From NCBI RefSeq assembly GCF_041886205.1, contig NZ_CP169031.1: DNA of 64,000 nt. One strand, written 5' to 3'. Source of the DNA: Escherichia coli. Lineage in GTDB: Bacteria; Pseudomonadota; Gammaproteobacteria; Enterobacterales; Enterobacteriaceae. Each line of letters begins with the position of its first letter. Position 1 is the stretch's first letter. The translations under genes were made by a program, and so were the position numbers. Below are positions 14,991 through 17,554 of the stretch, piece by piece. Below the pieces are notes generated by a model. The model had not been told where the DNA came from. It worked only from the letters and a program-made list of their open reading frames with translations, and did not search any database.

Positions 14991-15164
14991 TAACGTGGTT
15001 TACGGACACAAAAATACCGCAATATCGGAAATCTGCGGTTGTCCGCGTAAGTATTCAGGCTGCTAAACCCGGTCGCAGAATTTGCTACGACGGCGGAACT
15101 ATAAGCCTGAACGATTAAAAGGTCAATATGATGCGAAAAGATAGCATTCGCGACTTAAAAATAC

Positions 15165-15181
15165 AAATTTATTAGAGCATT
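15165..15181. promoter_or_regulatory. C1 operator-like site (aaatttattagagcatt)
   Basis: Near-consensus operator at the start of the ImmI operon. Confidence 0.6.
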
Positions 15182-15277
15182 GCTTGTTTAATAAATGCAC
15201 AATTGGATCTAATAACCTCTTTTTTTTAAAGGCGAAAATATGTACCCTAAATGAGTTATAAGGCAGGTGAGGTTATA

Positions 15278-15769
15278 ATGAGAAAACTATTACTACCGTT
15301 ATTATTTATGGCTGGGACTGTTAATGCAGCATCAAGCGTGAAGGAGATTTGTACCGATTATACGAAATACCTTGGGCACGTTTACGGCTTTGCTGTCAGT
15401 CAAGACGAATCCATGCGCAAGAAGTTACTGTCAGATATGAAACGTCTTAAACTTTCTGAAGCGATGGTGCAGCAAGAACTATATAAAGTCGCAACCAACG
15501 AAAATGCTAAATATCAATATTCTCGCCTATTAAATCCCGACGCAAACGAGATCAATCGAAGCACTTTCGATTATATGGTAAAGGCATGCGAAACCGCTCC
15601 TGATTTTGCTATCCCTAGCTGGGGTGTGCTGGTGGCGAGCAATGCCGTTAATAAAGAAGATGTTGGAAGAAATGGCATTGACTCAATAAGAAATGCCCCA
15701 GGAATGCGCCATCAAAACGTACAGGGTACGCTTGAAGAACGAGCCAGGGGGCCGGGTGTAGCCCCATAA
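15278..15769 (+). CDS. Secreted hypothetical protein (Sec signal peptide)
   Basis: Start MRKLLLPLLFMAGTVNA with an AxA cleavage motif; 2 Cys in the mature part; the C-terminus shares a GMR..VQGTLEERARG motif with Sit. AT-rich gene. Confidence 0.55.
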   Translation: MRKLLLPLLFMAGTVNAASSVKEICTDYTKYLGHVYGFAVSQDESMRKKLLSDMKRLKLSEAMVQQELYKVATNENAKYQYSRLLNPDANEINRSTFDYMVKACETAPDFAIPSWGVLVASNAVNKEDVGRNGIDSIRNAPGMRHQNVQGTLEERARGPGVAP

Positions 15770-15857
15770 TTTTATAAATAATATTAAATTCTCTGGGCAT
15801 AGTGGATCTAACAATATGGACTATGCCTATAATATCTAAAAACAAAAGGATAAAAAT

Positions 15858-16364
15858 ATGAAATTGTATAAGTCATTGTATAGCTTTTTATTAATGTCCT
15901 CTTTTCTGCCATTATCAGCAATGGCAGGTTCTACCGTTTGGACGGTAGGAGGTGAGCAAGGGTGGAGAGAAATCTCTGCAACCAATGACGATGGTTACAC
16001 AATTAACTTTTCTTGTGATGCTGGAGCAAGGGAAGGTTCAGAAGATCATATCGCTGGAAGAAATTTGTATGTAAGCGGAGGAAAAGAGAATGCCGATTTT
16101 TCTACACGCGACACAATATCACGTAAAGCAGATGTAATTACTTTAATTGTTGGCCCGGATAGTTTTAATATTGGCACGCAAAACACTGCTCCTAATCGTA
16201 GGGAATGGTATTCATTTTGGAAGGCAGTGTCATCTACAAATGAAAAAAACATAGATGTATATATCGGTTCGAGTCGAATCACATCATTCACTCTGGATGG
16301 TATTTCCAGTATTTATACAGAAGCTAAAAATGACGGGTGTTTAAAACAAGATGACGGTGAATAA
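15858..16364 (+). CDS. Secreted hypothetical protein (Sec signal peptide)
   Basis: N-terminus MKLYKSLYSFLLMSSFLPLSAMA; 168 aa; AT-rich; overlaps the next gene by 14 nt. Confidence 0.55.
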   Translation: MKLYKSLYSFLLMSSFLPLSAMAGSTVWTVGGEQGWREISATNDDGYTINFSCDAGAREGSEDHIAGRNLYVSGGKENADFSTRDTISRKADVITLIVGPDSFNIGTQNTAPNRREWYSFWKAVSSTNEKNIDVYIGSSRITSFTLDGISSIYTEAKNDGCLKQDDGE

Positions 16365-17424
16365 AGTGAAGGATATTAAACACATTTCGCTTAACTCTAA
16401 TAATAAAGCTGAAGGCACTGCCTTTTATGATTATTTAAATGAAATTAAAGGAGTGAGGCATAAAAAGATAAGTGGTTTATTAAATTCAGAATATATTTAC
16501 AAGAGTTTAGTTAAACAGTTTGGAACAGTTAAAAAACAAGAATTAATTAATGATTGTTTTCGAAAAGAACTTGAGTCTTTACCAAAAGTTACGAGAATTG
16601 CACACCAGTTTCGTGAACAAATGGTATTTTTACAGAAACAGTATCAGGCGGCTTTTCCCAGTGATGCAAATGAGCATATTCAAATAATTAAAAATCAAGC
16701 TGAAATGGCTATGCCGTTACGAAAACACTCAGAAGCCATTAATAAGATAGCTGGCTTAAATAATATGGAGGAGGTATTTAAAGAATTACACTCTAATATA
16801 AATTACAAAATTAAGATAAGCAAAGATATTAAAGAAATAATAAAGCAGTATAATAAAACAAGAAGTGTATTATTAGAGCAAGTAGTAGAGCTTGGGCTTG
16901 TTACTATCGCGCAGGCTTATGCTAATGATTCTATAAAATCAGCGCATACCGAAAGTGAGCATCAAAACAAAGGATTTAATAAATCTAGTTCGACGTTTTT
17001 TGATTCATTTAAGGCGCTTCCTTCTCCTATTCAGATCTTCCTTCTGTGGATTTTTTATCAAGTGGTGCTTGGCGCTATAACTGATTATGCAAAAGAAAAG
17101 ACATTATCGCAAATTTACAAGATGGAATCATATCTTCTATCTCTAAATGAGGATAAGCCAATATCTAAGCAAAAGCTAACACAAGAAAATAAAGATATTC
17201 AGTGGGAGGATCTTAATAATTTTAGAGCTATAACAGGTGATAACGTAAGGTTGCATGTCGGCCCTTCTTTAAATAGTGAAGTGATTGAATGCATTGGCAA
17301 AAACACAATTGTTGCTATTTTAGATAAGAAAGATCGTCAATGGCTTTACGTGCAGGTTAAATCAGGGGATGAGTTTATTACTGGTTGGATTACACGAACA
17401 TACACAAAGCCTCTTAAGGCTTGA
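16351..17424 (+). CDS. Membrane protein with C-terminal SH3b-like domain
   Basis: 357 aa; predicted single TM helix (IQIFLLWIFYQVVLGAI); C-terminal RLHVGPSLNSEVI...GWITRTY resembles bacterial SH3b. Lys/Asn-rich, AT-rich codon usage. Confidence 0.55.
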   Translation: MTVNKVKDIKHISLNSNNKAEGTAFYDYLNEIKGVRHKKISGLLNSEYIYKSLVKQFGTVKKQELINDCFRKELESLPKVTRIAHQFREQMVFLQKQYQAAFPSDANEHIQIIKNQAEMAMPLRKHSEAINKIAGLNNMEEVFKELHSNINYKIKISKDIKEIIKQYNKTRSVLLEQVVELGLVTIAQAYANDSIKSAHTESEHQNKGFNKSSSTFFDSFKALPSPIQIFLLWIFYQVVLGAITDYAKEKTLSQIYKMESYLLSLNEDKPISKQKLTQENKDIQWEDLNNFRAITGDNVRLHVGPSLNSEVIECIGKNTIVAILDKKDRQWLYVQVKSGDEFITGWITRTYTKPLKA

Positions 17425-17554
17425 ATTTTATCTCCGCATCTTCGGATTGGGTGTTGATGACGATGTGCTACTTGAAGCACTTGAGTTGTTTTAACGTAGT
17501 ATCTGAAATGTGTAGACTGACCGGTAACAAATGACAACTCGTAGAATCGGTTAA

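Follow-up and report, generated by a model that had tools for sequence, protein, structure and literature searches.

A Short Element Shared by the SimA Tail and the Tape-Measure Protein Sit of P1-Like Phage-Plasmids

Introduction

A stretch of 64,000 nucleotides (nt) of Escherichia coli DNA (contig NZ_CP169031.1 of assembly GCF_041886205.1), here called the window, belongs to a P1-like phage-plasmid (Punavirus) and carries in intact form the gene for SimA, with which the P1 sim (superimmunity) locus begins. The C-terminal tail of SimA has a segment of 35-50 amino acids (aa) in common with Sit, the tape-measure protein encoded by the same phage-plasmid. The shared element is real, specific to these two families, and selected, and a functional reading in which SimA would interfere with phage entry by resembling Sit is plausible. 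To our knowledge, the Sim exclusion of P1, familiar from the 1980s onward, still lacks a mechanism, and we know of no established route by which P1 DNA crosses the periplasm and the inner membrane via Sit. All features of the window given below with coordinates lie on the plus strand.

The Element Common to SimA and Sit

The full-length simA-like gene (15278-15769) encodes a protein of 163 aa, identified from the list of open reading frames (ORFs) and from its membership of the phrog_3933 "SimA domain" family. The protein ends IRNAPGMRHQNVQGTLEERARGPGVAP*. The Sit-like segment of its tail is encoded by 15647-15763, and the motif core N-A-P-G-M-R-H-Q-N-V-Q-G-T-L-E-E-R-A-R-G-P-G within it by 15692-15757. 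An earlier note, made from the sequence alone, had claimed that the C-terminus of this secreted protein shares a motif with an internal segment of Sit and that a second partial copy follows in Sit. Both claims are borne out by BLASTP, which aligns SimA with copy 1 at E=8e-8 (21/41 identities) and with copy 2 at E=0.002. The PHROG profiles match in both directions, SimA hitting the Sit family phrog_2533 at E=2.8e-5 and Sit hitting the SimA family phrog_3933 at E=1.5e-6. The local alignment score between the two proteins is 90, as compared to a maximum of 61 in 500 shuffles. SimA covers only positions 928-963 of the 1130 positions of phrog_2533; it is not a full-length protein with an SLT domain and so is no member of the Sit family, with which it has one common element only.

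The specificity of the element was assessed with a 50-column profile (profile A2), searched by HMMER against 1.84 billion representative proteins. Nine proteins were recovered at E<=1e-3: three Sit-like (1081-1124 aa), three SimA-like (176-222 aa), and three that are fragments of such proteins. Run on the 64-kb window translated in all six frames, the same profile finds the element once in simA (domain E=1.9e-17), twice in sit, and nowhere else. The element is private to the Sit and SimA families, and since this holds among 1.84 billion proteins, it is not the common low-complexity segment of unrelated proteins that the earlier note had named as a possible refutation. Chance and low complexity were rejected as explanations on the BLASTP value, the distance from the shuffle maximum, and the mere nine matches. 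When the other proteins of the sim loci (Sim2, Sim3, SimB, and SimC) were compared with Sit, nothing in common was found, the best local score for SimC being 41. The element displays sequence features of a short linear motif or molecular mimicry: a conserved core located in a tail of low predicted local distance difference test (pLDDT) score and followed by variable modules, with the same motif specific to Sit and selected in both proteins.

Sit and Its Copies of the Element

The sit gene (19745-23119) encodes 1124 aa and is identified as the tape measure and structural injection transglycosylase by a full-length match to phrog_2533 and by the P1 annotation. Sit has been reported as essential and named the tape measure (PMC10695390). 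The Pfam SLT domain comprises residues 742-847 (nt 21968-22285). Copy 1 of the element, GLVDKIGNAVGVNDLVNKFMNGRGMRREVVQGTLEERARGKGTATAAGNV, comprises residues 914-963 (22484-22633; profile A2 domain E=1.1e-25) and follows the SLT domain, ahead of the ~95 strongly conserved residues at the C-terminus. The segment NGRGMRREVVQGTLEERARGKGTATAA / NGRGMRREVVQGTLEERARGKG was correctly located in the earlier note, except that it starts at nt 22544, one position away from where it had been placed; the nucleotide sequences quoted there are correct in their letters but were listed in swapped order. About 200 nt (~68 residues) downstream of copy 1, Sit has LRNSPGMRKNNVPEPAS / LRNSPGMRKNNV. This copy 2 retains the first half of the element only (residues 985-1011, ...GIDGLFDKLRNSPGMRKNNV; 22697-22777; profile A2 domain E=4e-5). 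Arisen by tandem duplication, it was seen only in Sit of the E. coli P1 lineage and is absent from the Sit proteins of JK004, L007-L016, and L073. It has two alleles, LRNSPGMRKNN and LINARGMRSNN, which are partly, not consistently, matched by the SimA allele of the same genome. By AlphaFold2, the whole region of Sit after the SLT domain has a pLDDT <50.

The element was found in every Sit examined, among them those of P1, JK004, eight other lineages, and the distant Sit P0034 (locus L073), which has it although its contig carries no sim locus. Its most likely origin is sit, since no Sit lacks it, whereas the SimA proteins have kept it only in part. The SLT region of Sit (window ~21800-22400, residues ~700-890) occurs as two clearly different allelic types, of which the window type is present in JK004, L007, L011, and L014 and the P1 type in Ro157, L009, L012, L013, L015, and L016. 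Since the flanking C-terminal regions stay conserved, sit is itself mosaic. A search for relatives of the Sit C-terminus gave mostly partial proteins and contributed little. The protein P0046, a C-terminal Sit fragment of the divergent lineage described below, is labelled Bacillus altitudinis in NCBI, which is probably a contamination or a mislabel.

The simA Gene and Its Distribution

The ATG at 15278 is preceded, 5 nt upstream, by the Shine-Dalgarno sequence GGTGAGG; an alternative start at the upstream ATG 15251 would give 172 aa. The phrog_3933 profile matches the window protein over residues 1-162 at E=1.7e-114, which places it in the SimA family. The first 318 bases of the region 15100-17500 are 95.6% identical to the c4 promoter/PsimA/simA region of P1, and by tblastn residues 1-57 of the window SimA match P1 SimA, ~46 N-terminal residues being identical. 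On the ORF map, simA lies between the immI operon (c4-icd-ant) and pmgC-tub-pmgB-sit and is divergent from c4. The P1 annotation (NC_005856) has simA-simB-simC, described as "superimmunity", in the identical arrangement. The order of simA relative to immI and sit is also kept in 8 other lineages, the exception being L074/L075.

In P1, simA is annotated as 52 aa (L001 2501-2659) without the Sit-like motif. Because ~46 N-terminal residues of this short protein are identical to those of the window protein, it is a truncated remnant of the SimA family, whose members have 163-246 aa. The link between SimA and Sit is invisible in the reference P1 genome because its simA is such a stump. No report of the link was found in the literature searched, which did not include the P1 genome paper (Lobocka 2004).

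Intact homologues are encoded by phage Ro157c2YLVW (215 aa) and Cronobacter phage JK004 (189 aa). SimA homologues form 29 protein clusters from Escherichia, Salmonella, Klebsiella, and metagenomes, nearly all of them on ~90-kb contigs, and several clusters carry the label "simA domain protein". The protein P0001, identical to the 163-aa SimA of the window, has 153 member sequences. Intact simA is present in roughly half of the natural P1-like phage-plasmids with the locus: among 5426 complete E. coli genomes, the 5′ end of simA occurs in 250 and the full-length gene in 113, and the corresponding figures for PLSDB plasmids are 267 and 126. A frameshift before or just after the motif was observed in the SimA entries P0003, P0004, P0007, P0008, P0016, and P0020 and in the plasmid hits H61 and H62. 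These entries show one common out-of-frame tail, ...QWETSHQRNCKSITNGW..., and could be real pseudogenes or assembly errors.

Anatomy of the SimA Protein

The organization of SimA was examined in alignment A1, which comprises 17 members of the family with 51-98% identity to the protein of the window. The N-terminus has a predicted Sec signal peptide, MRKLLLPLLFMAGTVNA (15278-15328), whose n, h, and c regions were recognized by inspection, with cleavage after VNA. In the N-A-x-S cleavage region, N16, A17, and S19 are invariant (n=17). SimA would thus be exported to the periplasm. The signal peptide is followed by a conserved helical N-domain of ~105 residues (residues ~20-125; 15335-15652) with the two invariant cysteines C25 and C104; invariant Cys pairs are found both in this domain and in alternative C-terminal modules. 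In the AlphaFold2 monomer, residues 20-125 form a helical bundle with pLDDT >90. The tail with the shared segment has a pLDDT of 54-59 and is predicted to be flexible.

The N-x-x-G-M-R-x-Q core of the tail varies little or not at all among the 17 proteins, N139 and R144 being invariant and G142, M143, and Q146 conserved in >=90% of the sequences. The C-terminal modules that follow are interchangeable, and the swaps start directly after the GMR[HQ]Q core. One module type is Sit-like, with the pattern V-x-G-[TS]-L-x-x-R-A-x-G, and occurs with or without a G-T-x-x-x-M-G-N-L-S-P stretch that also resembles Sit. The other consists of one or two Cys-x(n)-Cys modules that are not Sit-related; modules other than the Sit-like one resemble no phage protein among those of the examined loci and the window. 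A Foldseek search of SimA against PDB and AFDB50 retrieved no structural relative beyond the SimA family itself. A weak Pfam match to PF14566 (PTP-like phytase) over residues 24-109 (E=7e-6), which is also precomputed for E. coli-type homologues, was rejected as an identity. Because the matched stretch has no catalytic CX5R, it is probably a spurious helical similarity.

Selection on the Element and the Mosaic Junction

Over the 66-nt core, the simA and sit sequences of the window are 70% identical at the DNA level. Of the 16 codons for identical residues, 9 differ synonymously, and no replacement occurs across VQGTLEERARG. The motif DNAs of simA and sit from all lineages show 50-77% pairwise identity, within a genome as well as between genomes. 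Where the amino acids are identical, cognate pairs use the same codon in 34% of cases and non-cognate pairs in 33%. The core does not vary even between SimA lineages as divergent as 37% in the N-domain. These patterns show purifying selection on the element in both genes, with synonymous sites saturated. Given the 9/16 synonymous differences and the DNA identity of ~70%, the match is old and kept by selection on the peptide rather than a recent recombination scar. The same nucleotide identity and the nearly equal fractions of identical codons led to the rejection of a recent exchange between sit and simA, by recombination or by gene conversion.

The earlier note had offered a mosaic junction as an alternative source of the similarity. 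A junction is indeed there: blastn of the window against Ro157c2YLVW shows homology that stops at 15757, where the motif has its last base, and resumes at 17518, so that the mosaic breakpoint 15757/15758 is exactly the 3′ end of the motif. Against P1, homology ends at ~15417, where the simB-simC cassette of P1 begins. A recombination junction thus sits at the motif, but on the codon evidence it does not explain the similarity between SimA and Sit. A terminator-like hairpin, GGGGC-N8-GCCCC (15748-15765), continues into a T-rich run (whole feature 15748-15775; a pattern match from a consensus scan) and overlaps the last simA codons, GPGVAP*. Because the Ro157c2YLVW homology stops at 15757, the window SimA ends four codons past the motif, in the hairpin. 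Hairpin and T-run overlap the last four codons and the stop, and the VAP* end of the ORF is thus supplied by the incoming cassette.

The swapped cassette, defined by blastn against Ro157c2YLVW and P1, measures 1.76 kb (15758-17517) and holds two genes. Sim2 (15858-16364) has a signal peptide and is predicted to be secreted; its homologues are flagged PF27224:YfjT. Sim3 (16351-17424) has one predicted transmembrane segment and a C-terminal SH3_3 domain (E=6e-6). At the IMG/VR loci where simA and the downstream cassette were both readable, simB-simC accompanies truncated simA, the window-type cassette accompanies the 163-aa form, and another YfjT-like gene accompanies the 215-aa form. At two loci, full-length SimA is combined with SimC-like genes. 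In the E. coli P1-likes sampled, the window-type cassette, a second YfjT-like cassette, and simB-simC alternate at one site, where full-length simA and simB-simC are almost mutually exclusive, which fits related functions. The sim region has been described as a hypervariable region of P1-like plasmids (PMC9603915).

Possible Roles of SimA

The role tentatively favored here for SimA, with a confidence somewhat short of an even chance, is that of a decoy or dominant-negative mimic of Sit, which would act in the periplasm and disturb the entry of DNA. A related phage would contract its tail and eject Sit into the periplasm, where the Sit element would have to engage a partner, either a host envelope factor forming or positioning the DNA conduit or other Sit chains. 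Resident SimA, presumably expressed in lysogens, would offer the same element in excess. Its tail would occupy the partner or co-assemble with incoming Sit, and DNA entry would be aborted. In a more specific form of this reading, which is possible if rather doubtful, the tail would reproduce the element by which ejected Sit engages an envelope partner needed for the translocation of P1-like DNA. The suggestion of the earlier note that the secreted protein is an exclusion protein mimicking or binding Sit finds circumstantial backing in the sim locus, the signal peptide and invariant cysteine pairs, the flexible tail, and the family-private segment, but not in docking by AlphaFold.

A hint of parallel change in both proteins comes from the most divergent lineage, the 94-kb IMGVR_UViG_2871745582_000001. 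Here simA (L074, 10001-10528) lies ~18 kb from sit (L075), on the opposite strand and off the tail operon, and the element is present in both. SimA reads NAPGMRHQAVKGSMAERARG and Sit reads NAPGMRHQVATGSMADRAYG; both have NAPGMRHQ..GSMA.RA.G, and the G-S-M-A variant occurs in no other lineage (the others have GTL[AE] or GSLM). Such parallel change without an excess of identical codons points to co-evolution at the protein level rather than gene conversion. As the substitutions are parallel or identical, not complementary, a shared partner or homotypic pairing would fit better than a lock-and-key contact. In a set of 7 lineages that includes L074/L075, one pair each, assembled post hoc, cognate pairs are more alike than non-cognate ones (exact permutation p=0.018).

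Several observations weigh against a role of SimA as a Sit mimic. The co-variation that the earlier note had proposed to look for across P1-like genomes appears in that 7-lineage test but not in the others: in sets of 9-14 genomes, with many close relatives among them, cognate pairs show no significant excess (p=0.09-0.4). The signal is weak and dependent on the test, and p=0.018 is suggestive only. In JK004, L015, and L016, the first half of the element is discordant, SimA having NAPGMRQQ and Sit NSRGMRHE. Many SimA proteins retain only the first half, N..GMR.Q, Cys-containing modules replacing the Sit-like second half. The phenotype of P1 Sim is attributed to SimC, and because P1 functions with a truncated simA, SimA is dispensable for exclusion of the SimC type. 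Searches of SimA with PADLOC, with NCBIfam, and against PDB sequences returned no match supporting a defence role, with none in PDB below E=0.01. The modelling of both segments, also proposed earlier, agreed with a low-confidence tail but gave no contact: in an AlphaFold2 fusion of SimA, a linker, and Sit(700-1124), run with an alignment of 12 sequences, both motif regions have a pLDDT <50 and the motif is docked nowhere. Being a single-chain model on so small an alignment, this result may be considered uninformative rather than negative.

Other roles can be envisaged for the same element. Sit and SimA might carry a module for partner binding or envelope anchoring, by which they bind one periplasmic component for separate purposes with no exclusion role; the component could be peptidoglycan, a chaperone, or an inner-membrane protein, and SimA a factor of lysogenic conversion or envelope remodelling. 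This proposal is unlikely, although it has points in its favor: the element is conserved in both families and in a flexible region, the parallel rather than compensatory changes fit adaptation to a common partner, and Sit retains the element in lineages without a sim locus and in P1 with its truncated simA. However, simA belongs to a locus historically defined by superimmunity, in which it alternates with simB/simC, and the occurrence of the element in no other periplasmic or phage protein among the 1.84 billion is odd for a general anchor. Competition for a common partner would, moreover, in practice itself disturb Sit. The likelihood is small, too, that SimA captures Sit directly, its helical domain binding the Sit element and its own tail serving as an autoinhibitory pseudo-ligand that incoming Sit displaces. 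A globular domain with a tethered candidate ligand is a common layout for autoinhibition, and the evidence from locus and export would be the same as for the decoy, but in the AlphaFold2 monomer the tail is not docked on the N-domain, nor is the Sit element docked in the fusion.

The position of the swaps allows the element to be seen as a junction or processing motif, N..GMR.Q marking the boundary between constant and interchangeable parts or a site of proteolytic cleavage in SimA and Sit. The beginning of the SimA module swaps immediately past GMR[HQ]Q, the window breakpoint at the motif end, and the duplication of the first half on its own in P1-lineage Sit speak for this explanation, which is nevertheless quite unlikely. 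Since its DNA is only 50-77% identical, the motif would be a poor substrate for homologous recombination, and conservation between the families extends to the second half, V.G.L..RA.G, which a simple boundary marker does not explain. Nothing in the analysis indicates cleavage, and the other C-terminal modules resemble no other protein in the loci examined. It is very improbable that the similarity is a by-product of mosaic recombination or a decaying, functionless captured sit fragment. The known hypervariability of the sim locus (PMC9603915) and the breakpoint at 15757/15758, with the ORF ending four codons later inside the terminator-like hairpin, are what such a relic could look like, but a DNA identity to sit of ~70% with synonymous saturation, the absence of non-synonymous change across VQGTLEERARG, the invariance of the core across divergent SimA lineages, and the lack of an identical-codon excess in cognate pairs contradict it. 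This pattern of selection already largely refutes the relic.

If the decoy reading of SimA is true, it would be the first exclusion system working by mimicry of a tape-measure protein, and the tail peptide could serve as a bait for the inner-envelope entry factor of P1. The shared element offers a target of ~25 residues for mutagenesis in both proteins. Exclusion by injection-protein mimicry may represent a new principle. The element may also matter for how the P1-like plasmids by which resistance genes are disseminated among Enterobacteriaceae compete with one another.

Comparison with Known Systems

The P1 sim exclusion is believed to take effect when DNA enters, once the phage has adsorbed. 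In the P1 sim studies of Devlin (1982), Kliem and Dreiseikelmann (1989), and Maillou and Dreiseikelmann (1990), SimC is said to be a processed periplasmic exclusion protein. The window has the same locus and first gene as P1, products predicted to be exported, and transcription divergent from c4-icd-ant. It differs in that P1 simA is a 52-aa remnant without the motif, whereas the window lacks simB and simC and has YfjT-like and SH3-domain proteins. SimA is not homologous to SimC, T4 Sp/Imm, HK97 gp15, Ltp, or SNIPE (PADLOC giving none); its sole homology in the P1 sim locus is to the 52-aa SimA.

CdiA and Rhs proteins are polymorphic proteins whose C-terminal modules are demarcated by the motifs VENN and DPxGL, respectively. 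SimA has the same layout: its N-terminal part is constant, a short invariant motif follows, the C-terminal modules are interchangeable, and recombination breakpoints fall at the motif. Unlike CdiA and Rhs, it has no toxin or immunity genes, its modules are tiny (30-100 aa), and its invariant motif is also found in a virion protein.

Spackle (Sp) of T4 is a periplasmic inhibitor of gp5, the tail-associated lysozyme of superinfecting T4. Like Sp, SimA would be a small phage-encoded periplasmic protein directed against a cell-wall-degrading protein delivered by the tail of a related phage, a parallel that is presumed in the case of SimA. Sp is globular and has no sequence copied from its target, whereas SimA and its presumed target have a linear segment in common, which lies outside the enzymatic SLT domain; SimA and Sp have no sequence or fold similarity. 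T4 Imm and Sp are cited among exclusion proteins (PMC13128918).

Other entry-blocking systems include HK97 gp15, which involves the pathway of the tape-measure protein (TMP), PtsG, and FkpA, as well as TP-J34 Ltp and SNIPE, and targeting of the TMP is documented for SNIPE (PMC13190303). In these systems, as proposed for SimA, the TMP is the feature recognized in genome injection. They differ from SimA in being membrane proteins, lipoproteins, or nucleases, which bind either the TMP or the host receptor of the TMP, and none has been reported with a TMP-derived motif.

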